Assembly (NCBI RefSeq): GCF_022045235.1
Contig: NW_027266264.1
Coordinates: 68,138,001-68,202,000 of the forward strand
From: Haliotis cracherodii
Lineage: Eukaryota
Reading direction: 5' to 3'
DNA length: 64,000 nucleotides
The number at the start of each line of letters is the position of its first letter. The stretch's first letter is position 1. A program made the translations under genes and the position numbers. This document shows, one piece after another, positions 5,602 through 52,560 of this stretch. Below the pieces are notes generated by a model. That model searched no databases. It was not told the origin of the DNA and worked only from the letters and a program-made list of their open reading frames with translations.

Positions 5602-5870
5602 GTGAGTTAGTTGGGTTTAACGCCGCTTTTAACAATATTCAAGTAATATCGCGGCGTGTCAGCTTAGTGTGGGAGGAAAGCCCGAAGTGATGCAGGTCTC
5701 AGACGTTTACCACTTCGGTGAAACCCACGAGCGCGGGTATGGTGCTGACAAACCTTGAAACATAATCGGGGCGAACCGGGATTCGAACCCACAATCATAG
5801 GTTTCCCCAAGGGACGCAACTCTGCACAGCGAAACGCGGCGCCTTAGACGACTGGGCCACCCGTATCCCC
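5602..5870 (-). mobile_element. SINE family 4 (tRNA-Leu/Ser-like head), full length, downstream of the gene A stop
   Basis: A box TGGCCCAGTCGTCTAAGG, B box GGTTCGAATCC, TSD AGTAAATGTTAGA at 5589-5601 and 5871-5883. Confidence 0.9.
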
Positions 5871-6331
5871 AGTAAATGTTAGAATGATTTAATGATCAGT
5901 AAGATCCATCATAATGAAGGCGTAGAATTCTGTCAATTCTCTGAACTCTAGCCATCTCACACGACAGTCAACGTCTTTTAAAAAGAGAAACACATCAACA
6001 AATGGCTCTGTTCGCAACTTGAACCATGGGCATGAGACTTCGAATGTCACAACTATCTCTCCGAAGATCATCGCTATGGTACATTCGTTTCACGTGTCAC
6101 AAGTGGGGTGTACGGTATTTACGAGCTGAAAGTTTCTGTACGCCGCTTGACCCCTTGCCTTGTGGTACACAGGACCATTGACCTCGTAGCATCCCGTACA
6201 CTCCTCTTCGGATTTCAATCTGTTGAATCGCAATATCACGTAGTAATGTTGGGCGATAAACCAGTAGCTTCTCTCGGCCAAACCATATGATCGAACTAAG
6301 ACGCGCAACTTGCTGGAGAAATATTATCCAT

Positions 6332-6374
6332 CTAAGGATCTACATCATTCTTTCCGTCATACAGATCAGAGTAC
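6332..6374 (-). CDS. Gene A terminal coding exon (YSDLYDGKNDVDP*)
   Basis: Strong acceptor TGTGTTTTTCAG; the TAG position is conserved in gene B. Confidence 0.8.
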
Positions 6375-9300
6375 CTGAAAAACACAACATTGCAATTTAT
6401 CAACGCCTGATAATCATTGATCTCTAGTAGCGGCATATAATTCAGGTCGCCTTCGGTTAACCATGTCTGGCTATGAATCCTGACTTGGATGTGTTCTTTT
6501 GAGTGTATGAGGGTATCTGTAACGGCTGATAACTCAGGTCGCCTTCGTGGTTAACCATATCTGGCTATGTACCCTGACACGGGCGTGTTCATTTGATTAT
6601 ATACGTGTTTAATCAATGGTGGGTGGGTGAGTGAGTGAGTGATTGAGTGAGTGAGTGAGTGAGTGAGGGAGGTTTTCCGCCGTTTTGAACAAAACTATGT
6701 CAAGGAGTCTGAGCTTAACAGGTAATGAACGCCCAAAGTGTCGCTGGTTCAATACGTCTACTTATTTAGGCAAACCCACGGACAAGGGTATGGTGCTGAC
6801 AAAACAAGAATTATTATAGTGCGAATTTCAGTGTTCGAAGCTACGACAAAGACAACATGGCATTCCTAAGGGACGCAACTCTACACTGCTCACTGCAGCA
6901 CATGTCCCTTTGTAGTTTGTGTGTGTGTTGAGAGGCGCTCTTCCTTGTGACTATAGACGCTGGTTATCTATACTCACTACAGTCAGGGTATGTACAGACG
7001 CTCTATTCTGGGTATCTATACCCACTACAGTCAGGGTATGTACAGACGCTCTATTCTGGGTATCAGTACCCACTACAGTCAGGGCATGTACAGACGCTCT
7101 ATTCTGGGTATCTATACCCACTACAGTCAGGGTATGTACAGACGCTCTATTCTGGGTATCTATACCCACTACAGTCAGGGTATGTACAGACGCTCTATTC
7201 TGGGTATCCATACTCACTCTATTTTGGTCACCTCTTGGAACTTGCACTTCTGAATATCATCGTCCGGATCTAGATACGCCACATCGAGTTCAGTCTTGTA
7301 AACTGAAACAAGTTATATCACACAAACGTTTGTACTTATCTTAAAATTATTCGTACGACGGATGTGCACGCGTATGGAGGTAATAGTCCATAGTTCGTCT
7401 CACTGCCTATTTGAGAAGATTTAGAGGAATTTTGTGAAGGATGTAAACCTACAACTTACGAACATTTTAAGGACGTTCGCCTGTCTATTTCAAGAGTATT
7501 TGACCTTTCCAATGAAAGGTTTTCCAAAGCCTTTATCATTTTAACTAACTGCATTTTTTTTGCACTTTGAAGCATTTGCTTATGCTCATATTCCCCCTTT
7601 ACTATAAATTTTATTACAGATTGATTGAATAATCATTCGCAGTGTTTAGAGTTTCGCATTTAGATATAATAAATGGTATATAATTTTAAACAATATTTTA
7701 ATCACACATGGAACAATCGTTTATATAAATATATAGCTCCATAGCACATATTTCCTAGTCTGATACTTTGCTTTGCCAATCTTAACAACGTGCGCATTTA
7801 CGGAATTCCCTTGACCAATTCCATTCCATTTACTTTGCAGAGTCAAACGCGACTTGTAGTAAAACGAGGATTTATAATCAGTGGATTTTGATTGATATAT
7901 AATTCCTACCTTTGACGAACTAACATTAAACCTAAGACTCCTGGCGTCCACGCCTCATGTATTTGTGTACGGTGGCAATGGTGGGGCAGGACATACTGAC
8001 CTTTTCGCGAACACCTGTTATCATCACTATGTAATAGGGATTCATAAACACATGCTATGACACGGTCTAAATCGTACACTGGACTCAAATTGGCTACACT
8101 TTTCCCTTGTGTTAAGAAACTGTGCCTACTGCTTAAGAATGACATTTCACCAGGTATCATCACTATTTGTTAGTGATTAATAAACACAGTTTGAGTTGCG
8201 CAGTGATTACATGGTGGTAAGAGCAGACATCCTTAAAGATTCTAGAAAAATCATGGCAAGTGAAACAAGAAATGGATTTCACACAACCGCGGACTTCGGC
8301 GTGACAACAATATCCTTTCCATAATAATATAAGAAATGTTTGCTAAAAGCAGAGTCCATAGTACGATTCCGACTACTAGTGTATCATAAGCATGTGTTTA
8401 TGCAATCACAATCAAATAGTTATGATACCAGGTGTTCGAATAAAAGTGAGCGTATCTTGCCCCACCGGTGGCACCCCTCACAAACGCGTTGTTGAATCAC
8501 AATATGGTTAAAACTATGTACTTTTGTAGGCTCCCTCTTCCTTCTTCCTGGACATGGCGATGAAGGCGAGGACGAGGAGAACCAGTAGCACCACGAACAG
8601 GACCACCAGGATGATAACCCATGAAGGGAAGGCCGCCGGTGCTACTACAATCGGTGCTGCAATGATAACACGAATTGACACATACAGGTACATTTAGGGT
8701 AATACAGTGACTGCTGATGTAGACACCATGTAAGTCTATGAGGTTGGTGGATTGACGATGTCAAATGTAACATCGTATGACAACTCTGATGCTCTGGAAC
8801 TATGAAATAGTTTCAGATACATAAAAAACACATTGGCAGGAAAAATGTATATGTCCATATCTGAATAGCCCGAATATCAAAAATACAGTTTCGCGTTAGC
8901 AACATGGCATTCGTATTAAATGGATGCATCTGCAACTTGCATATGTTATATTATTCTATACAACATTGACACGTGTTTCAAAATATGATACTCATATGTA
9001 AATCTATGTCTATGAAGCCTAAAGAATAGTTTATTTATAGTCACTTTCCTTCTTTAAGAACTTCCAAAAGAAGCGTTATCGAACATATTTGAAACCTTCA
9101 AACTTATAAAAGGGAGCCTGTCTGGAGACCCAAAACTACCCCAAAACGCACAGTAATCAACAGGCCTCGGGGAACACATCCAGTGGTTGAGTGAGTAGCC
9201 TATAGGTAGCTTTTAGCAATATTCCAGCCAATTCAAGACGTACGGCCAAACCGCCTGGACGCCACATGTACACATGTTGGGAAGTGAACTCGACCTCAAA

Positions 9301-12300
9301 GGTACTATTAATTTGAGAGACATAAGTCACATGCTTGACATAGCAGACATGGTGACAGCATCCGATGTTCATATATACAAACCTGTCCCATCCTCTAGGG
9401 CAACGTCAATAACTACACGGCGGGTTTCAAAGTCGTGGTACAGCACTCCGGTGTAGGTTCCTTCTATCTTGTCGTACTCCTCATCGCTCAGACGTGAAGT
9501 GTTGATGTAGGTTTGTTTTGTGACGTCGTCATAGATCACATGTGGCGGTAGTTCTGTGTAATACGTTTCATTCTTGAATTCCCATCTGTACCTGAGAGTC
9601 ATCCCCGGGTCTGTGGTTCCCCGCACAGTGAGGTTCATCAGATCACCTTTCTTGATGCCCTGTCTAAGAGGAGGCTGTGTAGTCACTTTGATAGGCTCTA
9701 AAACATGATATAAATTCGTTACATTGAATCATCACTTTATGAAACAACTGAACTGATTTTACCACATGCAATCAACTGTCATGGGTACAATTGGCTCTCA
9801 TGTGGCTGTTTGTTATATGGTACAATCTTACTTTCAATCGGAGCGGTCGGGTAGCCTAATGGTTAAAGCGTTCTCTCGTCACCCGAAGACCCTGGTTCGA
9901 ATCCCGACATGGGTACAATGTTTGAAGCCCATTTCTATTGTCCCCTGCCCGTGATATTGTTGGAATATTGTTTAAAGCAAACTCACTCACACACTCACTT
10001 ACTTTCGATCGAGGTCAGTATCACATTGCTCTCACAGAGCATGTTTCAATTGTGAACATTAGACGTTATAGTGCTTTATCAGAGAAATCTTCATTCTTTC
10101 GCGATAGGTTGATTGCTTTCACTTAACATAGGTATGATATGTTGTGGGTAACAACCAAGATAACGTCCGATGAACTTTTTAATAAAAGGACATTTTACTT
10201 CATAGCTTTCATCAGATGTAGATACTTTGATGTCGGAGCTTTGACGTATGATGTGCAATTTTGCTATTGAAACCCTGTTATACTACCTGGATAATTCATT
10301 TAAGGAAAATGAATTATTGATTTTCGAGTTTATGATCTCACATATAATCATTGATAAGATACAATATTGATGGGATATCAAACGAGCTTTCCATTTCCTA
10401 TCAAGATAATATCATTTGTGAGTAAATGAGTGAGTGAGTGAGTGAGTATGGTTTTATGCTGCTTTTAGCAATACATAATAGTAACATAATATTCCAGAAA
10501 TATCATGGCTAGGGACACCTTGAATACTAGTATATAACATATATTACGTGAGAAACATGACAGAAAATTTTGTAGTTTATTTGCTGCGGTATGACTTGTT
10601 AGTCTATGTATGGAAAACACATTTTCATGAACCAAGATATGAATTATTGATAAAATAAAATTCGTTAAATACATTTTGAATTTGTGATATTTTAAAAACA
10701 TTGTTTATAACTAAAAGGCCAATTTGTAATGCCATTTTTTGTTTTTGTATCATTAATTCGATTTACTGATTTTTGATATAATAAAATAACACATATAAAG
10801 TAAAAAGCGCCTCAATTCAGTCAGAAGGGTATTACCTACCTATGACATTGAGACAACCGTTAGCAAACTCGGAGCCTATCGAGTTGGCTACCCGACATTG
10901 AATGCACATAATGTCATCTGGCTTGGTCAGGTTTGTGACGGTCAGAACACGGTCACGTTCGCTGAACAGGATCTTTTCATTACCTGTGGGCAGAGCAAAG
11001 TTCATGTGTTAACTTAACACTTACTTGGACCATGGCTTTCCGACCATCCGACGTCTCAATATTTAATTCTTTACTTTCATGGTAGTACCTCTCGGCTCTC
11101 AGACTTATAAGTTTCGATACTATCAAAATGCAAGAATAGGATCGCAATAAATATTTCCAACATCTTTTAGTTACGTGACTCATTACACATTTCGCTCATG
11201 ATGTTCTAAATGCATTCACATAGGGTTGCCGGTAAAACTCATAGAGAATTATTAGAGCAGTAACCCCTTCCCACGGTAGATCGAAACAAAACATATTTTT
11301 TTCTGGGAAATAGACATACTAAATGGTGAATAAGGATGGCTGTGTCCTTTCCTTTGGTGGCAGGGGTATTCTTCAGAGTGTTCTCTTCTCGATTACTGAC
11401 TTACTGATAGGAGTTCATATGATTCATAAGAAATGATGACATTTCATGAACAACTGAACGCATACATCGTCAACACCAGATAATAACCAGTCTCGATTAT
11501 CCGTCGAAACAGATTCCACTGACCCTAACCCTTTCCATTTTCATCGATTGTACGATTCCGACTTTATCATGAACATGTATTTGTGAATCACTATCAAATA
11601 GTGATGATACTTGTCTTCTCGAAAAGGTAGTCGAATCCTGCCCCTCCGATTGCCCCTCATAAACACATGCAAAGGCATTTCAATTGTTTACCTAAAGGCA
11701 ACATATGGTACAAGGGACTTGCATCGGACATGTCACAGATAGTGATGCGTCACTGATGCGTCAAGTTTGGAATGTCCCGTATATGTCTACCATAGACGCA
11801 AAAGTCTGGAGCTGCTGGGATATTGCTCGACATGAAGGGAAAGTTGACTTTTGGAAAGTTGAAGTCGTCGCTCTTGTCGAAGAGTCGTGTGAAGAGTTTA
11901 TTGTCCCTCTGAAATCTATGCACATATCTTAATATGAAATAGACGAGGCGGTTTCACTGATCTCCCTTATGTTAAGTTCAGGTGGGTAAATCAGTGGAAG
12001 GGAATTGGCTATTAGACGGTTATTGAACGATATCAGATAACCGATATACCTTAAACTTAAGTTACACTTGGCCAAATTCCCTTGTTTTGAATTTGCTGAT
12101 CGATGATTGTATGAAAGATTGTGGTTAATCTTTAAGAAGGGTATATTAGCAGGACCCAGCAATATATCTCTATTTGTACGGAACACTGTGGAGCTTTGGT
12201 ATCAAGTTCAAAAAGGGTTATGACATATCTTCGGATAAAGCCAAAAGCTGATAGTACTGTTGCGTGGTTTAAGCAGTTTACTTCCTCAGGTTACATACTG

Positions 12301-15300
12301 GCCTAATATTTATCATGATTCGATTCACCTAAGTGAAGTTCTTTAACTACAATTACTGTAGTTATGCTTACATATAATGGTTATGTTATCTGAGGCCTTG
12401 TCAGTGGGAATATATAACGTCAACGTCAGAGAATAATGAGTTTCGACCATCCAGCAGGACAGATTCCATAAAGCGTAAAAAGCAGAAGGTCGGAAGGGCA
12501 AGCCAACACTACCGGTCACAGCCGCCACTCATACAAGCTTTATAAACAAGTAAGTGTTCGTCCATCGTCTTACAACAAGACATAATCAGGTTCGAACACT
12601 CATAGTAAAATACCCCTATGAATGACAATCCAACAATAGAGAATAATCTGTACCTGGAGGATTGTTCATGTTGATCTCCACCCCATTCTTGAACCACACA
12701 GGGGTACTCGGCTCATTCTCCGCACGAGCCGAACGGGCCTTACAGGTGAAGGTGGCATCTCGACCCTCGGGTATAGTCTTGTTGTGAATGCCCTGTACCC
12801 AGATAGGACCAGCTGCAACATGATATATGATGATTAAATTTACAACACCCACCCTCATCCCTGCCACCATCTACATCAACAGCCCTTCCCCCCACCCCAC
12901 CCAAAAACAAACAAACAAACAAACAAACAAACAAACAAACAAACAAACAAACAAACAAACAAACAAACAAACAAAACAAAAAACATATCCACTAGTATCC
13001 CCAGAAAAAATATCCATTATCAACCTATCAATATCCCTACAATGATATTCACAAGCATTTCCACAATAGTCCCACCAATGACCTCACAAACATCCAGAAA
13101 AACATCCACACGATCATCCCTACAAACGACCCGTACAAACACATACGCAATCACCTCACCATTATCCCGACAAACATATTCAACAAAATCCCCAGAAATA
13201 TATCCACAATCATATCCAACCAAAGCACACAGAAACGTCCCCCATTACATCCCTTGATCGTCCCACCAACATCCCAACACCCACACGAACATATACACAA
13301 TCATACCCACAATCATCGCACCAACATCCCAACAAACACATAAACGAACATCCCCACAAACATATCTACAATCATCCCACAAACATCCCCACAAACATAT
13401 CTACAATTATCCCACAAACATCCCCACCAAACGAGATCCCTAATCATCCCACCAATATCCGCACAAACATATCTACAATCATCCCACAAACATCCCCACC
13501 AAACGAGATCCACAATCATCCCACCAATATCCGCACAAACATATCTACAATCATCCCACAAACATCCCCACCAAACGAGATCCACAATCATCCCACCAAT
13601 ATCCGCACAAAGACATCTACAATCATCCCACAAACATCCCAACCGATAACCAAAGAATGAGATCCGCAATCATCCAAACCAATATCCGCACACACATATC
13701 TGACAACACTCTCACAAACATATCCACAATCATTCCATCAACACCTCCATCAACATCCACACATACATCCCAATAAACATTTCAACAATCAAAACAGCCA
13801 CATCCATCCAACTTCTCCACAAAGATATCCACAATCAACCCATCAACAACCTCAAAAACATCCCTAAAATACATCCACGCAATTATATCCATATTTCCCC
13901 CACAAACGTCGACTAAAATATATCCACAATCACCCCACCATCATCCCCACAAACATATTCACTGATATTACCAGAAACATCCACAATCATAACCGCCCAA
14001 AGTACACAGTCACATCCCCCAAAACACACCCACATTTGTCCCCAAATCCCTACAAACATATCCATAATCACACCCACAATCATCGCACCAACATCCCAAC
14101 AAATATATTCACAATCTTCAACAAACATCCCAAGAAAGATATCCACAGTCATCGCACCAATATCCGCACAAACATATCGATATCCGACCACCATCTCACA
14201 AACATCTCCGACCACACTCTCACACACATATTCATAATCAGTCCATCAACATCCCCATCAACAGGCTCACCAACATCCGAACAAACATATCTCCTACAAT
14301 TAACCAAGCAACATCCAACCCACTTCCCCACAGAAAATATCCCCACTCATCCCACCAACATTCCAATAAACACATCTACAATCAACCCAGCTACATCCGA
14401 CCAACATCCCAACCAGCATCCCCACAAACATCCCCTCCAACATATCCACCTTCATCCCCACAAACTTTTCCACTAACATCCCTACAAACATTCACAATTC
14501 ACAATTTGGAACATCCTACACAGATCTCCCACACCACTGCTGCATCCAACACATTTACACCCTCCCAGAGACACTAAAACCTGCCATTCTCGAAGACATC
14601 ACGGAGACAGTACATGCTTGAAATGGAACCAACACATGTTGTGTTGTGGAATAGCTCATGACAACCTACATGTTACGTTCAGGAAGATGATGTCTTCGAC
14701 AGAAATAGAGCTTTTCCCCTTGCATCTATAAATGCCTTCATCATCATCTGTTAGGTTGACAATGTGCAGTTTCATGTTGTTCTTGTCAAGTTTGTACTTC
14801 TTGTTGGTCGTGATGGGCTCTCTCCGTGGGTTATACCACTGGACTGACGGGATAGGGCTTCAGATACAGAAAATTGGCATAAAATACATTACACTTCTTC
14901 GTAAAATCACAGCCTGCAAAAAAGCTCTATTTCAGATGCTGCATTTAACCCTATTCCTATTTCCTATTATCCCGATTTCGATGTCCACGTTATTCATGTT
15001 GCTTTACTTTTCATTTATATTATTATTATAAAATATAGTATCAGGTTAAACTAACTATTATCATGTAAATTTGATGATAAATGACAGATTAAAATGACAA
15101 ATGAAATGATAAAATGGAACCTATGGCTGTACAATTTGTACTTGATTGATGCAAGTGTCTCAAGTTTGCTGATGGCAATCTGATTTCTTTGGATTACTAT
15201 GGTTTCTTGAAGTTTTGATTAATCCTATCGTAATTCCTGATTTGGTGTGCTTCGAGAGCCTTTTCCTCTCACTCTATGTTAATGTATGGAAACTACACCA

Positions 15301-18300
15301 GGCCTATAGAATGTTATGGAACTGTTGACACTTACTTTCCACTGAAAACACACTCCAGTTCTGCTTTTTGGCCTATGAGGAACTGGGTATCGGCGGTCTT
15401 AAACACATTTTTCGGAGGCACTTGGGGTTTAACTAAAGTTATAAACCAAGATGGTTCAGAAACAGGTCATAAAGAAACAGATCCGCAAGAAGGGGAGCAC
15501 AAAATGTGTGTTACCCAAAAGTTTACATAAACGTTATTAATGAGGAAGTCCAGCATTTCACATATTGTTTTGTCAGTAAACTACAGATTGAATTTGGATA
15601 ACAGCCGCCTGGGACAGAATGGGTTAATTCCAATTTTGTTTCCTCTTTTTCAGTTTGTGCGTTTTACCAATGACATCACGCACTGATTGAAGCAACCCTG
15701 AAGACAATTCAACAGGTTCCTGCTCTCTTTTGTCCCATTCATTGGCATATTGTTCGACAGCATCCATAATAAGTTGTGATCTCCATTTGAAGGAGGCTAC
15801 CCACGACATTTTGGTCCATATTTGATATAACTGACGAAGGTTGCTATTGTCAACAATAGCGAAGCCACCTGTGATTATATGACCAACAGGTTGATAGCAG
15901 TATTGTGAGTCTTGGCAGCCACAAGTTGTGGAATTAACATGAAGAGCTGCCAAGTCCACGTTCTACAACACGTTTCTATAATTGCATATGAATGAGTTTA
16001 TCATTCACTATCAAATGAAAGAGAGGCAAGCTGAGGGTATGGTACCACTTATAAATATATCAAAACTCCATGTTTTACTGCAATATGTTTGCTATTGTTT
16101 TTAATAGAGCAGCTTTGTCTGATATGTTATCAAATGTGAAATCATACTAAATCGTATACAACTGTTACACTGAATGGACTGATTCAAATGGGTTCGCATA
16201 TTCTCACCTTCTACTGGTTTAACTGTCAGCTTCTTTGGGCTGCCAAGTTGGATATTATTGCGATTGACATTGTACATGGCGCACTTGTATATATCAACAC
16301 CAGTCTGGTCTTCCATTTCCAAGAAGATAAAATGCAGGGTTCCTTTGAATTAAAAATTTACGCTATTATTCATGCATATACATTGTAAATGATTAGGTGT
16401 GGAAGCTCTGAATTAGTGTGTCCTTAAAGAAAGCTTTATAGAGCGCACCAACCATAACATCCTGACATTATGCCTGTTGGTTATGATGGGGAGTCATGGT
16501 GGTTCTGTTAAAACATTGGGCTACAACGGTTCTGCTTGCTCTAAATGCTCTGCTGACTGTCTCCGTCACGAGGCTGTAATTTAACATTTAAGGGAGTGTG
16601 ATGATTTAAAACAACAGATAGCTTCAAACTTAGGCGCTGCATTAAAAACTCCCCTCCGCCAAAAAAAACGCAGAACTTAAGACCTTCTGTGATTAAAAGT
16701 AGGTCTTACAACTCCCATATGGTCACTTTTCGGCTGCTAGTGTATCGTCAGTATGTTGCATTATGTACTAGTATATATGTCCTTTAGCTGTACCAGTCTC
16801 AGCTGGTGGTGGTCCAGAGTTGGACCCATTGTGATCCTTGGTCGGTCTGCACCATGCACGTGCTTGTGGGTTTCATCAAAGTGGTACGAACAAAGTCCCA
16901 TTGGGTCTTCTTCCCAAACAAACACAAACATATTCGAACTATTGCTGTAAACACACTACACTACACTACAAATTACCCCCAAGTCTACATGATAACAACA
17001 ACATACAGTGTACATCAAGAATCAGCAGGATGCAAACCTTTATCGTCAATATAGATTCTTTCGCTTTCTTTAACTTGTCCCTGGGTGCCATCTGTTCCTT
17101 GTCGGAACCACATGAAGCGTGCTGGAGGAACGCTCTCTGGAACATCCCCACACTCGAGGCTGGCATACTCCCCCTCCGACTTGATTATGGGTGTTGGTAG
17201 GGCGCCGCTGTCAGACCAACTTTCTAGAACTAGAAACAGCACCAGTATGATGATGTCAAACACAGGCGGCATTAAATGATGAGATGGACCTGTATATCAT
17301 TACCATGGGATTGTTTTGTGTATTGTTATTATTAAACAGTTCTCCCAATTGTAATTGTGGACTATTCCAGTGTATTGAAAGGTGTAAACCCAAGAAGGTA
17401 GGGATACAGATCTTCAAGGGTCGAATGTCAAAATATTTTCGAAAGAAATACAGCTTATATATCATATTGTGAATTTCAGAAAACACATAATAACTCATAA
17501 ATAATATCTTCGGCTTTGAAGATATACCGTGACTGCACTGTTGTTTTAATAGGCATTGAAAATATATTTTTTCTAATGATGCTTTATAATTCAGTTGAAA
17601 GGGTAATAGCAGAGTGTAACTATGTTTCCTCATGATGTTTTATAATTAAGTTAAACTGAACAACTGGAATCCGTATATGAGTTAATGTTGTTTATCGCAT
17701 ATATGGGTGAGAGAAATAACTGTTTGTATGTTTGAACAAATGATATAAATTCAGTATGACCATTGTGTCTCTTAACGGGAAAACAATATGGGTCATCTTG
17801 ACTTTCGATGTCAATTCAGCCTTTAACAAATTGAAGAATTATTATATTGGAGTGGTTATTATTCTGCATTGACAATTTATTTCACATTGTTTCACCATAG
17901 ATAGCCTTGAACATATACTGATGGTATATACGACTCTTTACAAAACCTGTGATGGGTGACTACACACCCACAGAATGAATACAGCCATAAGCAGTCACAG
18001 AAAATATACACGTGACTCTACACTGACACAATAAACAAATTCGTGGAAAGTGTTGGATTTATGACTATGCACTGACAGAATTAACAGAACCATACACATC
18101 CTTGGACATGTGACGTCACATTTGGACCAGTGAGGCTTCTCACTGTATTTGTAAACGCTCTGATTAAAAAACAGCATCAATAAAAGCCTAACTTCCCTCA
18201 CGAAAGTTTTAACGATAAACCTGTTTACAGACAGGCATACTTAGACTGCGTCCAACTGTTCCACTATGAACTTGCTATTGATGCAGTTGATCGATATGCT

Positions 18301-21222: not shown

Positions 21223-21424
21223 TGTTACTCTTAGCCCCGCCAAGGACAGTGTCCCACACAGGCAGTCTGTAAACAGTACATAGAAGTGAAACTTGAGTAA
21301 CAAACATTATTAAGACATACGTTTGTTGTAGACAAAACATTACAGTGTTTTCCCGATAACGCACAATGCATACATGAATGTGCCAGTGGCCTTCACAAAT
21401 ACATTTGAATGAAAACAGTAAATA

Positions 21425-21616
21425 CAGTAAACTACGGTTATAACGAACACGTTTATAACGAACTGATGGATATAACGAACTAATTTTTTAGTCCCGACTG
21501 TTTGATGTAGTTATGCTGTATATATGCTTATTACGGTTAATCTATGGAACGAATTACGGTTATAACGAACTAAAATTAGTAGTCCCTTTGAGTTCGTTAT
21601 AACCGTAGTTTACATG
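21425..21616. mobile_element. Tc1/pogo-type MITE
   Basis: 22-bp perfect TIR GTAAACTACGGTTATAACGAAC; TA at the left end. Confidence 0.85.
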
Positions 21617-41100: not shown

Positions 41101-44100
41101 AGGTAAAGCTGCATCGTCAACTATCATCTAGTCAATATGCACATAACAGGTCTCTTTCACAACGAACAATAGTGATTGGAAAAATGGATATTCAATGAAA
41201 TTTTTTATATGAATTGCCTCTTAAGGGCGAGGATGTCGCTAAATATATGTCAGCGATTCTCCAAACAAGTGAGCAGAAGCGTAATGTCGCATCGGCAAAA
41301 TGTCGACGGGTCTCAATGATACACTTGTTTAACTAATGGGGCATGAGGTTTTCCATTGACAAACAGTCTTTGCAATCTAAACATAAAATCGGTTTTATGT
41401 CAAAGCATATGAGTGAGTGAGTATGGTTTTACGCCGCTTTTAGCAATATCCCAGCAATATCACGGCGGGGGACACCGGAAAAGGGCTTCACACATTGTAC
41501 CCATGTCAGGAATCGAACCCGGGTCTTCGACATGACGAGCGAACCCTTCAACCACTAGGCTACCTGACCGCCCCTCAAAGCAAATGAAGCCTTTAGAGAC
41601 ATGAGCGCACCTTAATAATATATTTCCAAGAAAACCTTGCAAAGAAAAGGTAAAACACGAGCTAAGAAATAATGAATGCATAGTAACACACTTCACTTGG
41701 TAATTTTCAGTCATGTAAAAGGAAACTTGAAAAGTAACATACTCTATCCACATTACCAAGAAGCCTCGCGTCGCTTTTATTCTGATCACTGCAAACATTC
41801 ACGCATTTCAAGTCAGGACAAATACTGCTACTCACTATCCGCTGAAAACACACTCCAGCTCTGCCGTTTGACCAATTTGGAATTCCGCAGGGCTGGTTTT
41901 AAACTGGATCCTAGGCTTCCTTTCTGGTTTAACTGACAAAGAGAGGTGACAAGAAAATACCATTACTTTGAAAACACCTGCAAGATGGAGGAACAGAAGT
42001 CATGGGTGATAATATGTGAAGTTGGTTCATATCTGTTAATGAATTACCACTAACTAAACGTGAAAATAACTTAATTAAGTAACCCACAGTGACATTTTTT
42101 TCTAATTAATCAAGATGATATTCATGTATTACATGTCTATGTAACTCTGATGCTAGAACATATGTGAGTGGTGGTAAAGGATGTTTTGTTTGTTGTTCTT
42201 TGTAGTAATACTCCAGCTATAATACGACGACCTTTAAATGACCGTGTCTTGTTCACACAAACCAGTGGTTGATAGCATGATCAAAGTCAATGGGGAACGA
42301 TGACACACATTCAACCAAGTCACCGAGCCTGACCCCCTGATTAATATATCTTCCGACAAACATAGGTTACTAAGGAAATTCTTACCCCTGAATCACTACG
42401 ACTTTTGAAAAGATATGCAACATAGCGTTACCAGTGACTTCTCTAACTGTTAGTCTCTTGGCATTGCCAAGCTTAATGTAGTCCTGAACTTTGTTATAGA
42501 TGGCACAGTTATACACGTCATCGCCACTCGTCTTGTCACTTGGCTCCACGTAGATGAAATGTAGAGTACCTTCAATGAACACATCATCATACAGTGCCTT
42601 GCTTTCACTTCAAAAATAAAGCTGACGTTGAGTCAGTACAAACGTTCTGATAATTTGTAATCTCTTACAAAAGAGCATTTCCAAGGTCATGATAGGACCG
42701 CTCTGTAACAATGAATACATCTGAAATGTGGAATGTACTTCCGCAATATTTCATGCCGATCGAAAACTTTGCCTTTTAGATGATCATACGGCACCCTTAT
42801 TGATTTCTGGATTTAATGAGGTTAAATTCACGTAGCCCCAAATAAGAAGAAACAGAACGAGACATATATACCTCTCTCGTCAATGTAGGTTCTGTTACTT
42901 TCTGGATTTAATGAGGTTAAATTCAAGTAACCCGATATTAGAAGAAACAGAACGAGACATATATACCTCTCTCGTCAATGTAGGTTCTGTTACTTTCTGG
43001 ATTTAATGAGGTTAAATTCAAGTAACCCGATATTAGAAGAAACAGAACGAGACATATATACCTCTCTCGTCAATGTAGGTTCTGTTACTTTCTCGCAACT
43101 GATCAGCATCTTTTGATGATTTCAGAAACCAGCTGAATGGAAGTTTTGGGTCACCGTGGGTGACATTATTACATTCCAGTTTGGCGTATTCCCCCTCTGA
43201 CGCAATGATGTGTTCAATTTGGCCGCTTTTAGTCCAACCAGTAGCATGTCCTTAAATATACAGACAACAGATGTGTTTGATATTTTTAAATAGGGACAGG
43301 TACTTTCGTATGTTCTAACAAAAAATCCTCTTCCACTGCTTATTGTTCTTCAATATCACACCCGTAGTTCTCCTCAGGTGTATAGAAATTAAATTTTTGT
43401 TTGTTTTTTGTGTGCAAAAACATCTCGATATAAATACACTATGCCTTTTGTTTAATATTAGTTAACCACAATGTTGCTTTCCTCAAACTAATCCTGTTTT
43501 GTTGTTGATTCACTTCTACCCGTATCCTAACCAGCAAACCAAATACCTTGAAAAGGATAGACACTGTCAGTTATTTTGGCTTTGTGATGATTCCGGTCAA
43601 ATGCTAATATATAATATCTGAATAGAGGCAGGCAGCTACTTATGTATGGTGTACAATGCAGAAGCAGAATACACGCATGATCTGACCTATCCAGCGTAGG
43701 GCAGCCTGGCAATGAATAGTTTAATAATGAAGTGATGCTGCACAACAGGCCAAACTAAAAGATATATATCTTCCCGCCAGGACCCCTGTGCACAGTTGTG
43801 CTCAACTCACTGATTTCTTTCAGGCTGATAGCGGGTGACATGGCTAATGGTGATACCCCTTGGCTGATGTTGTTTGTCGCCCCACATCGGTAGTCCCCCG
43901 CCTCCCTGCCTGAAAAGTCGGGTATTTCCAGTGCACCAGTGTCAGCATCTACTTTCTGGTACTGATTTGACGAAATTTCTGTACCATTCCTGTACCATGT
44001 ATATCTGAAATAAGGAATTGGAATACCTAGTGCATGCACAAAGTAATAATCACCGAAGGACCATCTGCCCGACTACATTGTTTGGTGATGTGCTGAATGA

Positions 44101-47100
44101 AAAGCAAGACACAGAACCTTGAACAAGGACGAGTTCTTTTGGAGCAACAACTTCTACAGTTGAGACTTCCTTTTAAAGTAGATTCTAACACCTTCATTTA
44201 GCAATATACCAGAACATAAACCGAAACTGCAACATTCCACTCAAAGGAGGTACATAGAGCCGTATCTAATGTTGCCTAAAGGGGCCATTACACCAAACGG
44301 CGATCGCTCTGCGATCCTTCTGCGTCCTAAAATTTGACTAGAGCGCAGTGGGGTCGCCATACTCAAGAAAACTCTCTTTTAGTGTAATCGCTCCTACGAC
44401 CGTTCTGCCTTCCTTCTGCGACTAAATATGTTACTTTTGTCAATGTCACTGCGTTCCCTGAACGACCTAGGCGTTCACTGTGCGATATCTCTGCGCTCCC
44501 TCTGCGTCTCCTCTTCGTTCTCTCTGCGTTCCCTCTGCCTCCCTTTTGCGCTCTACGTGACCGTTCTGCGACCCCTCTGCCTTCAACGCCGACCTGGCAA
44601 AACTTAAGAACGCAGAACGGTCGCAGAAAGGTCGCCGTCCGGTGTAATGGGGGTATAAGCTACAATACCAGACATATCGTTGCTTGTCGGTAAAAAAGAA
44701 TTTACAAGCATATGCATGTAGAGTTATAGTCATGGATGGTTCGAAGATACTGTAGCGTGCTTACATAAAAGTGCATCTTCCCTTGTAGAATGGAAAATGT
44801 TAGTTTGAAGATGTGGCCTGCATATATGCATCACTATAACAAACCTAGAGACTACGCAGTGTCGTTAGCTTCTTTTGCTGAGGCTTGTCCCAATAAAGTC
44901 AACGTCTTTCTCAACTACATCTCCTGACCTTACCATATAACTGTTATAACCAGTCATCTCCTTCTGATTTATATGGCTTTATCCAGGTATATCAACCACC
45001 TAGGTCTTCCGTGACCAACTCGTCGGGACAAGCCGAACGTAGACCCCTCTCTATGGTTTCGATATTGTCGTATGAACTACTTTAAGCAAGAACGATAACT
45101 CTTATTCTACCCGTACCTTAAATACAGCAGCACTCACTTATTCCTCTGGTAAAAGTATTGAATCTCTCTGATATAAAATTAAAAAATTTCTTTAGAACAA
45201 AAGTATATTTGGCAAGCCATTCAACTCAATCATTCTCAACTGTTGATCTTTTATTTGCAAATTAGTAATTAGTAACAAGGAATTTCTCAGACATATTCAG
45301 TTAAATGTGGCAAATTTGAAATCGTCTTTTCAAAGCTTGAAAGTGCAATTTCAAAACTCATTACTTCAGAACTAAATCTGTCCTTTCATGGACAGTGTTA
45401 ACAAATAGTACGCATATTGTCTATGAATTAATTACAATATAATTATGACGGAATTCCATATCCACCATGTCTAGAGATGACGAGAAGTATTTCTAAACAT
45501 ATATCGACAGCGTAGTGAGACCATGTTGGTTTTCAAACCCCGTGAGGGTTCCCAAGTAGCCTATGCCTGTCGTGAGAGGCGTCTTAATGGATAGGGTGAT
45601 CACACTCGATACCTTAGTTGATAGCGTACCATCGCACCTCGACCGTATTGATCGTTGCTTCCAATATCAATTGCTGGTGAATGTCAGTGCAAGTTGTAGT
45701 ACATTCAATTTATACCCCAGAGCGATGTCTGACAAAGACATATTTATTGATAGTTAATATTCTACTATTAGAAATTTTAATATTTCTGTACAATATACAT
45801 TTTATTAATCTGTATGAAAGTTGATATTCTAAAAAAGAATTCGCAAATGGCCCAAAATACTCGCAACACAATATAACATAATTAGAGTTTTATAGGTACG
45901 TGAATAATTTGTTTTGAAAAAGGTGATTAGATAATTACTTTTACACTTTTTTCAAAGGGATATTACACGGAATGTCGTTCTGGAAAGTCAGGTCTAGTTG
46001 AAATGGACAGATATCGCAGTTAAGTGAGCCGTTTCCTGGATGTAAACAAAAGCACGTGTACATTTGAATTTATCATCCAACATAGCACTTCAAGTAACAA
46101 TATAAATTATATATACTCTCCGCCAAAAGAAACGCGAACCATAGAGAAGCAAGTACTTTAAGAAGAGAGGTGTCCAATGTATACTACTTAATGACAAAAG
46201 TAACAACCAGTCAAGTGTTACCACAGAGCGTCTTTCTACTTATCACAATATACTGCACGTGATTTCCAAACTTTTCACGCTAATCTTGCACAAGACAAAT
46301 GGTGCATCTCGAGTCATGGATCTGTGACGTCACATATGATGCGTTCATGAGCGTCGATTCACACAACATAGTAGTATGTTCGTTTGTGCATCAAACCATT
46401 CTAATTATCTTCAAAATGAGTAATTCGTCATATATTACCCAACTTATATGGGATTCGCGTTTCTTTTGTCGGTGAGTATATGTATCACATTTCTGTTATC
46501 CGTATACAATGCGGTGTGGAACCGACAATCTACAATTTCCTGCAGTTTTTAAACAAACACTTATTGCTAAAATTCTTTTATGGACTATATTGATTATATT
46601 ATATTTATCAAAGTACCAATATCCTGACACGCATTCTGATTGGCTTGCGCCGTTTCGACGAATGACGGCCTTCGAGATGGGGGACGAGCCTTGTAGGTTA
46701 CGGAAACATGCGAGTGGTGACGAATACCTCCTTTCTGCTGAGAAACAACTCCGTGGTATAGCAACGACATAACTGACAGGGTTTGGGCAGAGGCCATTTG
46801 TCTACAATGCAAAGAGCTTATATCATGCTGTGAAAACAGGTTTGGTTTATAAATAAACGAAACCGACAATAACGATATATGACGATAAAATTTCTCAAAC
46901 GACGGTAAAAGATTTGTTTAAATTTCGAGAAAGAGCATCCCGCATTACCATAGGTACTTTGGTTTTAGAACTAGAAAAGACTACTGGAGTTGCGCATGCG
47001 TCGATATTTCACTTGCTACACATGCGCACCTCTTTTCTATTCGTTGCGTTAGTAGATTAACCATGTCAGTCGATTTCCTTAAGTGCCGCCTACGCCATAC

Positions 47101-50100
47101 ATACACTTGTTTCTATAATGTCTCTACTCTGTTCGTTGTGTCAGTAAAGTCTTTAGGAGCCTTTTTATTTTCTTTCATTGTGTTTACTAACTCAAGTAAA
47201 CTAATAGCCATGTTAGTAGACAATCCCAAGCGCTTTGTTTCTGTAATTTCTCTACTTTGCTATCTTTGTCACTAAATTAATCACATTAAGGCTTGACGTT
47301 TAAAACCTTCAATCAGTTAACTCCAGGCCCAAATTACTTTCATTGTACGCGGTGGTCAAACCTTGTATTTTGGTTGATACAACTATAAGTGAAGACATAT
47401 AAAAGGGCAAACAATTTGGCAATAAAATAGTTAATGTTTTGTTGTATCTACGCTTTCACATAATTCAAACAAATTACTATTCTTTACATATATCTTATTA
47501 AAGTACACATTACACAGAATAATTGAATGCAGTATCTTAAATTGAAGTTGTTTTTAGTCCAGTGGTATTCCTCCTAGTATTTTCCAGTTATACTGATCTT
47601 CACCATGTATTTGTTATAAGGTCAAAAATGCATCTCAGAAACGAATGATAATAAATAGAACCATTATAGCTGCAATTAGGAATTGCATTAAATATAGTTC
47701 GTGACAGAACTTGTAGTTGGAAAGGAATCAATAGAGAAAAGACATTTTACATTTATCACAAGTGTATTCTGGACATTTCACATTTATCATTGGATTGGTC
47801 TCTGGCTATCGTCCATGAGTTAATGAAACAAATGGGGAATTACAAGGTATAATCCATTGGGAGCTTCGGAGCGAGTCACAGAATCAATAGAGAGATGAGC
47901 AATCAGGCACGTAGGCTTTTGGTATTTTTCCGATGGCGACACACATGAGTTCATGGTCAGATCTAAACTTGTAACGAATCAAATGGAGGTATTGAGACAT
48001 GTGACAAGGACAGGTCAGGCTCGAACACTATAAAATGATACCCTCAACATTAGGAGAGGGAAGCGCGGTTTGCAGTTGATCGAGTCGAATCCCGATCGTT
48101 CTAAGTTTCCCCCAGCTAGTGACGAGCCTGACCAGTCTGATCCTGTTCTGTATTGATAGATGGGCTGAGAGTAAGTAAAATTATGTGAGTATAAACTGGT
48201 GTTGCGTTTCTTTATTATGTGAGTATGAATGCTGATAGAGACAACTTGGAGTAAGGGTCATTATGCCAATCACTCCTTGACGGAGCCGAGCCGTGGTGGA
48301 CAAGGCGAGGGCAATGTCCTGGCTTAATTGACCACAAGGACCAGGAACGGCAATACATTTAGTAACTGTAGCAGGGTCGCACTGAACGCCCAAAAGCAGT
48401 TACGACATATTGATGTACAACAAGTATAAGATCATACCACTATTTCGATTTGGCTGGACAATAGGTAATAACGCTACAAACTATGGAAACATTGTATTAG
48501 TTACAAGTAATATGGGTTTTAAAATCGTGGAATCCTGATCTATTACAGATGCTAAAAAGAAGAAAATATGTGTACAGAGTGAACAGGAAGATAGAAGTGT
48601 GTCCAGTCATTTTGTAGTGCTTGTCTCGTGACAGTAGACAGCTTACTTCACAGAGTTGAAAACCTTGACCACAATCACTATGAGGTCCCGTTTCCCGGTC
48701 TTCAGCAACCCATTCTTGCCGTAAAAGGCGACTATGCTTGTCGTAAAAGGCGACTAACGGGATCGGGTGGTCAGGCTCGCTGACTTGGTTGATACATGTT
48801 ATAGATCCCAATTGCGTGGATCGATGCTCATGATATCAATCACTGGATTGTCTGGACTAGACTCGATTATTTACAGACCGCCGTCATATAGCTGGAATAT
48901 TGCTGAGTGCGGCGTTAAACAACAACCAATCTTAGGCATGTCGATATATTTAAGGATGTTTTGTTTGAGCTATAAATGATGTAAGTTTATGGTACAGAGC
49001 GAAACGGTATCGATAATATGATCTTCCGTCGACTGTGTCAGATTCACTACCAATTACACAATATATTTACTGAAGTACCTGGGAGCGGGTTATGTAGTCT
49101 CACGAGCACCAGAATCTATAGCAACGCATGTGTCAGGCTTGTCAAAACGGATAAGAAGATACAGAAGGAAGCGTTTATTATCATGAAGTAAACAAAAACA
49201 CTGAAATGCTAAAAGTTATGTCAGGTATTAATCTGAAGTTAGTGGTGGTCCGAAAGGTGTTCATATATCGTCTAGTTATGGTTCACTCCCAGAATACCAG
49301 ATTTGCTTGGATTGAACATACAGCCTATCTGGTGAAGTGTCAGTTTGTACGTGAAATCTACGGTCAATAAACGTCGGATACAACATCCTTGTTTATATGT
49401 TACACGGACGTGAAAATTGTTTCTGTTGCAATAATTATAATTTTTTTCTTTCTCCTTGTCATGTTGAATTCACTTTAGAATATTCTAGTTTTGCTCCCAG
49501 CTTCCTCCCGACAACACATCCTACATTATGGAGGGACGGTGGGGTAGCCTAGTGGTTAAAGCGTTCACTCGTCACGCCGAAGACCAGGGTTCGATTTCCG
49601 ACATGGGTACAATGTGTGAAGCCCATTTCTGGTGTCCCCCGCCGTGATATTGCTGGAATAATGCTCAAAGCGGCGTAAAACCATACTCACTCCTACATTA
49701 TTGATTTGTATAATTTATTTTTGTATTTGAAATATATAACAATGATACTTTAGCCTAACTTCTTGTTGTTTTTCGGTGGTTCAATGCCCTGGACGCGTCA
49801 TTCTGGTAGTTGCTGTTGCTCTCCCTGGCGCTGGGCAGTGAGGGGATAAAACAAGGTCCCGTCGGGTCGTAGTCAGATGTAATGTGTGTGGGCCAACACT
49901 ATAGAGTGATTGAGTATGGTTTTACGCCGCTTTTAGCAATATTCCAGCAATATCTTACGGCGGGGGAGACTAGAAATGGGCTTCACACATTGTACCCCTG
50001 TCGGGAATCGAACCCGGGTCTTCGGCGTGACGAGCGAACGCTTTAACCACAAGGCTACCCGACCGCCCCCAACACTATAGAACTGACAAGTACGAAGTCC

Positions 50101-51498
50101 TAACTAGTACAAGAAGCCACACATGCATGTACACCGCTATAGAAATACAAGAATATTGAACGCGACATTAAACGCCATTTTACCTAATTTTTGTCCTGTA
50201 TATTGTTATTCATTCTGTATGGTTACACATATAATTTCCAAAACGTCGAATAAAGTATCGATGGTAGTAATTATATTGTAACCTTTATAACGAGTTTTGT
50301 TTTCAAAACTGAGCAATGATTTACCTTAAAATATTGTTGTCAATATTCAGAGACATTTCCGGAAGCTCACTTTTCAGACAATTATCAGTAGCTACACTGT
50401 TATGACGTCACAATTGAAGTATATCATTGAAAGAGATGTGATCAAGGTTTACCATTAGTAAATAAAATCAACAATACAATTTCCATAACCATTACATTCA
50501 TCTGAGTCCATTGCACGACCATACCAAAAGCATGCGTATCGCACACTGGGAAGCCAATATGCCAAGGATGCCCACGAGTATCCAATTGGTTGTGATACTA
50601 ATTATATATCTATATGCGGTTTATAGCCATACAGGGGCAGCTGGGTATCATCGTGGTTAAAGCGTGGGCTTGTCACACCAAAGGCTTGGGCTCGATTCCC
50701 CACATGAGTACACTCACTCAACCACCCACCCAAACACACCCACTCATTTGCCAAAGCCTCACCCACTCACTCAGTGTACATGTGCACTCAGCTATATAAA
50801 TAATGTTCTTACTTGGGGGTAGGGTTGCCCTCTGCTTTGCATGTGAGACAGATGCTGTCCTTGGCGGCGATGTACCTGATTTGAGGCACCAGCGGATCTG
50901 TTATGCCGGGCGGTTTTCCTATTTCGGAAAAAAATAAATGTATGGAGTTGCGGTTCTTTGGCAGGCCAGAAACATATGATTATGGGTTCGAATCCCTGTT
51001 CGCCCTGATTATTTATCTCAGCACCAGTTTGTCAACACCATACCAGTGCTCGTGGGGTTCACCAAAGTGGTAAACGTCTGATCATGAGACCTGCATCACT
51101 TCGGTCTTTCCTCCCACATTAAGCTGACACGGGGTGATGTAACTGGAATACTGTTAAATGCCGAGGCCCTTTATCTATCACCATTTTACGGTTGAGTGAT
51201 TTCAACGTGGGGTGATACTCATGGCACAGATTCTTGGGTATGTTAACCAAACTCACATATTGACGAGTGTTCATACCTTTGATATCAGAAGTTACTCGGG
51301 TAAAATTCTAATTAAAAAATATGATTGTTAAGTCATATTCCGCTGTCATATTTCCCAGATATGCTTAGACACAAATGAAACTAGCTGCGACAGCAGGAAT
51401 ACGAGTTCTGGCATAACTGACTGTGTGTGAAACTCACCCTGAGACGCGACGCCGTGTAGCGAGGCCAGGGAACAGAACAGGATGAATATTGTCGACAT
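30641..51498 (-). CDS. Gene B: paralogue of gene A with identical exon structure, ~614 aa
   Basis: Exons 51438-51498, 50813-50918, 43811-44004, 43062-43250, 42432-42569, 41836-41932, 38890-39080, 38275-38427, 35708-35845, 34401-34715, 33592-33726, 32251-32335, 30641-30683. All are GT-AG with the same phases as A and sum to 1845 nt. Confidence 0.9.
30830..31660. repeat. 31/32-bp minisatellite x~26
   Basis: GGGATATTC(C)TACAGAAAGTCCCTCTTACCAA. Confidence 0.95.
32079..32149. repeat. (TG)n microsatellite
   Basis: Read directly from the sequence. Confidence 0.95.
32251..32335 (-). CDS. Gene B cytoplasmic exon 1
   Basis: IYKTELDVTYLDPDDDIQKGKFQEVTKIE; 82/85 nt identical to A. Confidence 0.88.
33592..33726 (-). 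CDS. Gene B transmembrane exon
   Basis: Nucleotide-identical to 8522-8656. Confidence 0.92.
34401..34715 (-). CDS. Gene B membrane-proximal cysteine-less Ig-like exon
   Basis: 315 nt, about 80% aa identity to the A exon at 9383-9697. Confidence 0.9.
35708..35845 (-). CDS. Gene B Ig4 C-half exon
   Basis: VLTVTQPTKPDDIMCFQCQITNDIGSVFSNGCLNVI; donor GTAAGT. Confidence 0.9.
36037..36240 (+). mobile_element. Family 3 copy
   Basis: cttcagcaacccatgcttgtcgtaag...gctggaatattgctgagtgcggcgttaaac. Confidence 0.85.
37836..37977. mobile_element. Same MITE family, internally deleted
   Basis: TA-CAGTAAACTACGGTT...AACCGTAGTTAACTG-TA. Confidence 0.85.
38275..38427 (-). CDS. Gene B Ig4 N-half exon
   Basis: GPIWEKAITNLTVPEGRDASFTCKA...PVWYKN. 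Confidence 0.9.
38890..39080 (-). CDS. Gene B Ig3 C-half exon
   Basis: PLPSIQWFN...LTEKDEGLYRCKGENTLG...IFLDVK. Confidence 0.9.
39220..39381. other. Assembly gap (N run) in an intron of gene B
   Basis: About 160 Ns. Confidence 0.99.
39800..40110 (-). mobile_element. Old SINE with CORE/Deu-like body
   Basis: The minus strand has tccttggacaaatggct and cctcagttcacccagcagtgaatgggtatccgg, resembling CORE and Deu cores. Confidence 0.5.
40423..40680 (-). mobile_element. SINE family 2 (tRNA head, Meta-domain-like body)
   Basis: B box GGTTCGATCCC; gtcataccaaaagacgttaaaagatggtacttgttg core. The Meta assignment is from recollection and is unverified. Confidence 0.85.
41412..41574 (-). mobile_element. 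SINE family 1, full length
   Basis: Matches consensus; imperfect TSD TCAAAGCA(T/A)ATGA. Confidence 0.9.
41836..41932 (-). CDS. Gene B Ig3 N-half exon
   Basis: VKPERKPRIQFKT...GQTAELECVFSGY; donor GTGAGT. Confidence 0.9.
42180..42390 (-). mobile_element. Family 3 copy, degenerate
   Basis: tcaaccaagtcaccgagcctgacc. Confidence 0.65.
42432..42569 (-). CDS. Gene B Ig2 C-half exon
   Basis: GTLHFIYVEPSD...YNCAIYN...LGNAKRLTV. Confidence 0.9.
42803..43093. repeat. 95-bp tandem repeat x3 spanning an exon end and donor site
   Basis: Period 95 (42872, 42967, 43062). Confidence 0.95.
43062..43250 (-). CDS. Gene B Ig2 N-half exon
   Basis: EGEYAKLECNNV...FSWF...SNRTYIDER. Confidence 0.88.
43811..44004 (-). 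CDS. Gene B Ig1 C-half exon
   Basis: YTWYRNG...GALEIPDFSGREAGDYRC...AMSPAISLKEI. Confidence 0.92.
44280..44655. mobile_element. PIF/Harbinger-like MITE
   Basis: Imperfect TIR CCATTACACC..ACGGCGA / TCGCCGT..GGTGTAATGG, flanked by TAA. Confidence 0.7.
46114..46478. mobile_element. Tc1-like MITE
   Basis: TIR TACTCTCCGCCAAAAGAAACGCGAA / TTCGCGTTTCTTTTGTCGGTGAGTA, TA TSD. Confidence 0.85.
48697..48930 (+). mobile_element. Family 3 copy
   Basis: Near-consensus with duplicated 5' hairpin. Confidence 0.88.
49530..49690 (+). mobile_element. SINE family 1, full length
   Basis: TSD TCCTACATTAT. Confidence 0.92.
49906..50068 (-). mobile_element. SINE family 1 nested in an old family-2 SINE
   Basis: TSD CCAACACTATAGA; the flanks at 49810-50183 resemble the family-2 body and tail. 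Confidence 0.9.
50813..50918 (-). CDS. Gene B Ig1 N-half exon
   Basis: KPPGITDP...ICLTCKAEGNPTP; donor GTAAG. Confidence 0.9.
50945..51160 (+). mobile_element. SINE family 4, 5'-truncated
   Basis: Reverse-complement match to 5620-5825. Confidence 0.8.
51438..51498 (-). CDS. Gene B signal-peptide exon (MSTIFILFCSLASLHGVASQ)
   Basis: Same 61-nt coding length as in A; donor GTGAGT; acceptor at 51538. Confidence 0.85.
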
Positions 51499-52515: not shown

Positions 52516-52560
52516 CTGTATGTACTGATTGGTTCTATGCCAGATATTCTCCACTACTTG
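52516..52560 (-). other. Probable non-coding first exon of gene B (5' limit uncertain)
   Basis: CAG|GTACG donor; acctgtatgtactgattggttctatg aligns with acctgtatagacagatgggttctagg at 24765. Confidence 0.5.

Follow-up and report, generated by a model that had tools for sequence, protein, structure and literature searches.

A tandem pair of five-Ig, L1-derived receptor genes in the abalone Haliotis cracherodii, one of them chimeric in its pattern of ancestry

The window analysed here is a stretch of 64,000 nucleotides from Haliotis cracherodii (RefSeq assembly GCF_022045235.1, contig NW_027266264.1, positions 68,138,001 to 68,202,000), which carries two spliced genes on its minus strand, designated A and B. 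Both encode intact single-pass receptors with five immunoglobulin (Ig) domains, and both belong to an offshoot of the L1/neuroglian family that lacks fibronectin type III (FnIII) domains and is found across the molluscs. Gene A has the ectodomain of one abalone type and the fifth domain, membrane helix and tail of another, and was likely formed by unequal crossing-over. The reading that we favour as a whole, with confidence close to even, is that the predicted horseshoes formed by Ig1-4 of these receptors bind matching horseshoes on neighbouring cells in a type-specific manner, serving adhesion or cell identity. The work covered the 64-kb window, protein searches and aligned contigs.

A self-comparison of the window located matching exons on the minus strand. 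Splicing at AG/GT boundaries gives 13 coding exons for each gene, with stop-free frames of 618 amino acids for gene A (21222 to 6332) and 614 amino acids for gene B (51498 to 30641). The intron phases of the two genes are the same (1,2,1,1,1,2,1,1,1,1,1,2), all 24 introns and both frames are intact, and the proteins are identical at 385 of 621 aligned positions. In each, a signal peptide and five Ig domains are followed by a membrane helix and a tail of 51 residues. The spliced products agree letter for letter with two RefSeq entries for L1-like proteins of H. cracherodii, XP_071105281.1 (P0001) for gene A and XP_071100656.1 (P0013) for gene B. The genes are real, and have already been annotated automatically. 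Their features are as follows.

6332..21222, minus strand: gene A coding span, 13 exons, 618 amino acids; chimera of an A-type ectodomain and a B-type block of Ig5, membrane helix and tail
21162..21222, minus strand: gene A exon 1, signal peptide
18695..19135, minus strand: gene A Ig1 (exon 2, 19135-19030; exon 3, 18891-18695)
16208..17229, minus strand: gene A Ig2 (exon 4, 17229-17038; exon 5, 16342-16208)
16342-16208, minus strand: gene A exon 5, carrying the type-specific FG loop and G strand of Ig2
14670..15432, minus strand: gene A Ig3 (exon 6, 15432-15336; exon 7, 14857-14670)
10840..12812, minus strand: gene A Ig4 (exon 8, 12812-12654; exon 9, 10983-10840)
9383..9697, minus strand: gene A exon 10, fifth Ig-like domain, similar to L1 Ig6, without the core disulfide
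8522..8656, minus strand: gene A exon 11, membrane helix and juxtamembrane motif
6332..7302, minus strand: gene A tail (exon 12, 7302-7218; exon 13, 6374-6332)
30641..51498, minus strand: gene B coding span, 13 exons, 614 amino acids; B-type ectodomain and short tail
51438..51498, minus strand: gene B exon 1, signal peptide
43811..50918, minus strand: gene B Ig1 (exon 2, 50918-50813; exon 3, 44004-43811)
42432..43250, minus strand: gene B Ig2 (exon 4, 43250-43062; exon 5, 42569-42432)
38890..41932, minus strand: gene B Ig3 (exon 6, 41932-41836; exon 7, 39080-38890)
35708..38427, minus strand: gene B Ig4 (exon 8, 38427-38275; exon 9, 35845-35708)
34401..34715, minus strand: gene B exon 10, fifth Ig-like domain
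33592..33726, minus strand: gene B exon 11, membrane helix; 135 of 135 nucleotides the same as gene A exon 11
30641..32335, minus strand: gene B tail (exon 12, 32335-32251; exon 13, 30683-30641)
52516..52599, minus strand: alternative upstream 5' exon of gene B, RefSeq isoform X1 (P0015)
8375..8668, minus strand: 294-nt tract the same as 33445-33738 (exon 11 and its intron flanks)
4266..9699, minus strand: 3' block colinear with 29180-34717 in coding and non-coding sequence, from exon 10 to about 2 kb past the stop

The architecture is supported by contigs from sequencing runs presumed to be RNA. These contigs come from relatives or paralogues at 85% likeness, and they bear on the architecture and not on the expression level of gene A. 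Introns 2 and 9 are spanned in 4/4 runs, introns 11 and 12 in 3/3, and intron 3 in at least one run among the matches listed. In 2/3 runs the Ig5 exon is joined straight to the membrane exon (intron 10), with letters of the gene B type at the joint. A fourth run, of uncertain kind and covering introns, gave no joints for introns 10-12 among the matches listed.

The two proteins come from a shortened offshoot of the L1 family. Pfam found Ig domains in both (E≤0.01), and neither fn3 nor Bravo_FIGEY at the same threshold. Intron 10 has no room for an array of FnIII domains, because its longest stop-free frames (74 amino acids in the 726 nt of gene A, 53 in the 674 nt of gene B) are too short. Hidden FnIII exons are rejected on the Pfam result, these frames, and the direct joints between Ig5 and membrane exons in the contigs. 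An AlphaFold model made with a 17-sequence alignment has a mean predicted local distance difference test score (pLDDT) of 83.3, and shows five β-rich domains and a helix at residues 543-568. Ig1-4 of the model superpose on the neurofascin horseshoe 3p3y with a Z of 33.0 and a root-mean-square deviation (rmsd) of 3.1 over 381 residues. CNTN4 and CNTN5 are tied with neurofascin within 1 Z, while hemolin gives Z 31.3 and rmsd 4.4 over 380 residues. A sequence search of the PDB placed neurofascin first (E 1.4e-75) and hemolin 19th (E 6.7e-37).

Domain profiles were built from 55 near-full-length family members and compared with a bear L1. The Ig1, Ig2 and Ig4 profiles match domain by domain, and the Ig3 profile is ambiguous, the bear record being incomplete at that point. 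The fifth-domain profile is best at Ig6, in a weak match of 12.6 bits against at most 4.4 elsewhere, and no family profile is best at L1 Ig5 apart from a generic cross-match of Ig3. The fifth domain is unusual, in that the B-strand cysteine is absent from 55/55 members and the F-strand cysteine is found in 11/55, with the core tryptophan in 54/55. Folded alone and without an alignment it reached a pLDDT of 45.7, and this model was not used. Both genes carry the tail motif RKKEEGAYKIYKTE. An earlier note, made from the letters of this DNA, had described two intact 13-exon genes with identical phases, encoding a signal peptide, five Ig domains, a membrane helix and a short tail, and the splicing and the exact RefSeq matches bear this out. 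Its further statements agree with the results above: that FnIII domains and the FIGQY motif are absent from genes A and B, that Ig1-4 form a horseshoe (as predicted here), that the fifth domain is like L1 Ig6 (from the weak best profile match), and that the genes are of L1/neuroglian origin, for which the best solved structure is neurofascin and the parent gene described below has an L1-type tail.

The design of five Ig domains without FnIII is found in many gastropods (Gigantopelta, Patella, Babylonia, Littorina, Pomacea, Aplysia, Elysia, Physella, Biomphalaria, Bradybaena and Candidula) and in five bivalve genera (Solemya, Mytilus, Ostrea, Pinctada and Pecten). This range of gastropods and bivalves rests on names looked up for 10 of the 43 shorter hits inspected, with a few more named later. 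A FIGQY-like motif is kept in 26/55 members examined. A pattern match had flagged FIGQY in P0234 as well, which was false and was dropped by a stricter count. Bravo_FIGEY passed its cut-off of 23.8 bits in 4/11 and 4/14 of the proteins scanned, namely the abalone parent (P0021, 44.2 bits), the abalone A-long protein (P0005, 27.9 bits), Aplysia, Solemya and four further bivalve members. Quick trees, in which long branches leave the root unsure, broadly reflect the grouping of the molluscs, and abalone, Pomacea and pulmonates each show an expansion of their own. The database names neuroglian-like, contactin-5-like and hemicentin-like hide one coherent molluscan family with a diagnostic fifth domain.

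Within abalone the family is a set of interchangeable modules. In a tree of 22 sequences from four species, with one isoform per gene, there are three ectodomain types in the cluster (A, B and C) and the parent, each a starred clade. Among the proteins returned, those of H. asinina and H. rubra are A-long, B-short and C-long; H. rufescens has these three and also A-short, together with B and C ectodomains on a third, unrelated tail; and H. cracherodii has the same set as H. rufescens minus A-long. Gene A groups with A-long in the tree of Ig1-4 (100/99), and with B-short in the tree of membrane and tail (98/97). The approximately unbiased (AU) test on Ig1-4 rejects a short-tail clade (p 7e-42), and on the tail it rejects an A clade at a borderline p of 0.047. 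Genes A and B are 52% identical in Ig1-4, where their synonymous divergence (dS) is 1.1-2.7 and the nonsynonymous divergence (dN) is well under it; dS falls to 0.11 for Ig5 and 0.13 for the tail, with exon 11 at 0.

The non-coding sequence gives the same picture. Colinear homology extends into non-coding sequence (61-80%) from exon 10 to 2 kb beyond the stop, with the two copies 24.3-25.2 kb apart. Upstream of exon 10, colinear matches between the genes are limited to exons and exon edges. The 294-nt identical run is longer than any in 5000 shuffles (maximum 59), and is likely a recent gene conversion. When H. cracherodii and H. rufescens are compared, 2 sites group by species and 0 by gene in exon 11, and 0 by species and 136 by gene in Ig1-4. 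An artefact of assembly or polishing is an unlikely cause of the identical tract, because A and B of H. rufescens share their own exon 11 residues. The pattern suggests that unequal crossing-over in or close to the Ig5 exon, before the two Californian abalone species split, likely placed an A-type ectodomain onto the Ig5-membrane-tail block of gene B, and that later conversion would have refreshed exon 11. This model predicts that A-long should lie downstream, and A-long is present in H. rufescens (P0005).

Five abalone pairs have 371-384 of 400-402 ectodomain residues in common (93-96%), and only 8-23 of the last 85 residues in a global alignment, the tails being unrelated or distant. These pairs of RefSeq models were picked for showing this combination, and 4/5 include a third-tail or C-long model from outside the window. 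The abalone models P0014, P0028, P0003 and P0053 have a B or C ectodomain on an unrelated membrane-tail module, the third one, which carries YLTP and YSTI/YTTI motifs. A tblastn search of the window with 15 proteins gave no relic exons of the long FIGQY tail or the third tail and no third gene; it returned repeat-borne and chance matches and the 5' exon of gene B. The abalone cluster is a small natural experiment, with one ectodomain on different tails and one tail under different ectodomains, and this sharing makes the question of adhesion or immunity directly testable.

The ectodomain types are stable. Between H. cracherodii and H. asinina, the parent is identical at 283/404 positions of Ig1-4, A at 281/405, B at 299/401 and C at 291/403, that is 70% for the parent and 69-75% for the three types. 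In the close pair of species the figures are 383/404, 359/406, 372/402 and 385/403 respectively, which indicates that gene A (88%, against 95% for the parent) is somewhat faster. A hypervariable ectodomain is not supported, since identity between species is like that of the parent. On these and the family-wide results the broader proposals of the earlier note need revision. Its variable ectodomain gives way to stable orthologue groups, whose divergence between distant abalones does not exceed that of the parent; its lineage-specific architecture occurs in five bivalve genera and many gastropods; and the lack of FIGQY is no trait of the family, 26/55 members keeping the motif, but a loss in some paralogues. 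It had named conserved one-to-one orthologues without a cluster as one finding that would undo it: a conserved parent lineage is indeed present, yet so are clusters, and the tandem cluster that it proposed is supported in abalone.

Genes A and B descend from L1 and probably work like L1. If so, horseshoes on neighbouring cells would bind in trans via the G strand of Ig2, as in neurofascin, whose dimer forms via the side of Ig2 around Thr222 and Gln224 according to the available part of PMC3406286. The segment that aligns with neurofascin HTIQQK differs among A, B, C and the parent, and is mostly constant within each type across the four abalones, in keeping with type-specific adhesion based on a small code. 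The fifth domain, without its disulfide, would form a short stalk and bring cells closer together than full L1 does. The short tail keeps the membrane-proximal GxY motif and not the ankyrin site, and so may uncouple adhesion from the ankyrin-spectrin skeleton. The GxY motif of L1 binds FERM proteins. The distal tail of neuroglian binds ankyrin and stabilises adhesion (PMC2133023, accessible portion). A swap of tails would then rewire the intracellular output of one recognition specificity.

Several points weigh against type-specific adhesion. Homophilic binding by genes A and B, although likely by analogy, is putative. The accessible text of PMC3406286 indicates that domains beyond the horseshoe contribute to L1 adhesion; equivalents of L1 Ig5 and FnIII are missing from the window proteins. 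The A-long gene predicted by the crossover is not among the H. cracherodii proteins returned. The parent ectodomain is itself fast-evolving, at 70% between abalones. Repeated lineage-specific expansions resemble immune families more than a slow adhesion gene, and the snail forms without a membrane helix and the tails with tyrosine motifs also look more immune-like.

These last features lead to the main alternative, which we regard as possible though tentative: that the proteins are haemocyte surface receptors for microbes or self markers, alongside secreted relatives (Lymnaea MDM, for example), and that the pairs with shared ectodomains would be paired receptors with opposed or distinct outputs. 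The five abalone pairs and the YSTI/YTTI motifs of the third tail would suit this role, as would the independent expansions in Pomacea, Physella, Bradybaena and Biomphalaria with their membrane-less forms, and MDM is described as a relative of hemolin that has five Ig-like domains and is lowered in parasitised snails (PMC8625317, PMC11999971, as far as these sources were available). The tail of gene A has one hexamer with the consensus of an immunoreceptor tyrosine-based inhibitory motif (ITIM), across the exon 12/13 junction. However, only 3/6 short tails have this hexamer, and it is absent from H. asinina and H. rubra, so that a conserved ITIM was rejected as a family trait; over all 14 tails scanned the consensus is found in 3, and none has two YxxL/I. 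The aligned tails have no pair of activation motifs (ITAM) and no charged membrane residue. Ectodomain divergence is no higher than that of the parent between distant species, though gene A is faster in the close pair, and the conversion between A and B evens out Ig5 and the membrane exon rather than the ligand-binding end. Kinship with MDM is by description; a word-limited search with six freshwater-snail members returned 23 proteins, among them an unnamed Lymnaea protein and none named MDM. A bolder form of the same idea, which we consider rather unlikely, is that a molluscan self-recognition or immune system, as yet undescribed, arose from L1, in which a conserved FIGQY-tailed five-Ig parent gave independent clusters in abalone, apple snail and pulmonates, with type-specific faces, exchangeable signalling tails, secreted forms and MDM as a member. 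If MDM does belong to the family, a marker of snail immunology gains an origin and membrane-bound partners.

It is improbable, in our view, that A-short and the third-tail chimeras are near-neutral passengers of a recombination-prone array, redundant with A-long, B-short and C-long and without distinct function. The chimeras do occur only in H. cracherodii and H. rufescens among the proteins returned, and not in H. asinina or H. rubra; the tail of gene B lacks the tyrosine of the ITIM-like hexamer, which its H. rufescens orthologue keeps; and the homogenised Ig5 exons are a ready crossover site. Neutral passengers are less easily reconciled with intact frames and introns throughout, with dN well under dS in Ig1-4, with the retention of A-short in two species at 88% identity, and with spliced contigs of both A and B type in related organisms. 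We give least credence to heterophilic receptors of epithelial junctions, the shell-forming mantle or gametes, whose partners would be contactin-like or other proteins and not the receptors themselves. L1-family horseshoes do bind other partners, the neurofascin-contactin complex 7ol4 is among the fold matches, and a Solemya member has an added LDL-receptor class A domain, but nothing in the window points to a partner.

Type-specific adhesion by an L1 offshoot can be set beside several known systems. The canonical L1 family (L1CAM, neurofascin, NrCAM, CHL1 and Drosophila neuroglian) has in common with the window genes the horseshoe of Ig1-4, an Ig6-like fifth domain, a single membrane helix and the membrane-proximal GxY motif, while its FIGQY-type tail is shared by the molluscan parent paralogue, only in part of the family. 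Canonical L1 has six Ig domains and FnIII domains (PMC3406286, part available), whereas the window genes have five Ig domains, neither FnIII nor FIGQY, a fifth domain without the B-strand cysteine, and a tandem cluster with exchanged tails. Hemolin, from Lepidoptera, whose production bacteria induce and which attaches to microbial surfaces, is likewise a truncated L1-like horseshoe without FnIII. As described in the available parts of these papers, it is found in the haemolymph (PMC8625317) and its Ig domains number four (PMC3406286), whereas the window proteins have five and a membrane helix, together with an L1-derived tail and a better sequence match to neurofascin. The earlier note had called the receptors hemolin-like, but hemolin ranks below neurofascin and the contactins by sequence and is not ahead of them by fold; on these comparisons the likeness is one of parallel truncation and not of kinship. 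Genes A and B are members neither of canonical L1 nor of hemolin, and the family is a second case, besides hemolin, of an L1 protein that lost FnIII and diversified.

MDM of Lymnaea stagnalis (U58769.1 / AAC47132) is a gastropod protein with five Ig-like domains, called hemolin-related in the accessible part of PMC8625317. The window genes, too, encode five tandem Ig domains in a gastropod, and Physella and Bradybaena have five-Ig family members without a membrane helix, a likeness to MDM by description only. In vertebrate paired receptors (Siglec-11/16, CD300A/C), as described in the sources available, ectodomains that are almost the same carry different tails, and gene conversion has shaped the clusters. 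The first feature is seen in 5/5 abalone pairs compared; unlike in those receptors, conversion between A and B lies over Ig5 and the membrane exon, and no conserved opposition of ITIM and ITAM is evident among the tails scanned. Hydractinia Alr are clustered Ig superfamily receptors with tails more divergent than their ectodomains and homophilic binding in trans, and have tens to hundreds of alleles (PMC9546547, accessible part). Their domain make-up is different, and the parent-like identity between abalone species does not favour polymorphism of the Alr type. Oyster CgIgR has five Ig domains, a membrane helix and a tail with tyrosine motifs, a likeness drawn from its description, and according to the available part of PMC6994640 it carries an ITAM; the abalone tails examined have none.

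A literature search, which left subscription journals mostly uncovered, found no description of a molluscan FnIII-less five-Ig L1 offshoot or of the abalone cluster, and the molluscan family and its tail swapping appear to be undescribed in the literature covered. Searches of the ESM Atlas with the C-terminal half of the parent and with the third tail gave generic Ig or low-score clusters only, and Rfam gave 0 matches in the window.

Some further proteins deserve mention. A second short-tailed five-Ig set (P0182 and relatives, including H. cracherodii XP_071103224.1) lies outside the FIGQY parent group. The Solemya velum member with the LDL-receptor class A domain (P0165) carries it at the N-terminus, and several short-tailed members have N-terminal extensions of about 100-150 residues with no Pfam match. 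In Pomacea at least 8 family records lie on one 34.7-Mb contig, and the expansions in Pomacea, Biomphalaria, Physella and Bradybaena include forms with a weak C-terminal hydrophobic segment or none. In P0174, P0237 and P0136 horseshoe units are repeated in tandem, as two or three sets of 4-5 Ig domains; fused gene models could account for this, or the proteins could be other derivatives of L1.

The window also contains a number of repeats and minor irregularities. A 95-bp tandem repeat at 42804-43093 (3.1 copies, 97% matches) copies the 3' end of gene B exon 4, including its GT donor, two extra times, and splicing at a downstream copy of the donor would change the reading frame. A gap of 163 N bases (39220-39382) lies in intron 6 of gene B, 140 nt ahead of exon 7, and leaves the coding sequence untouched. 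The GT donor of gene B exon 7 (38890) looks weak compared with that of gene A, and is the one used in the RefSeq protein. Long minisatellites are found at 2107-3935 (42-bp units), 30838-31658 (31-bp units) and 6960-7218 (48-bp units), the last of which adjoins the donor of gene A exon 12.

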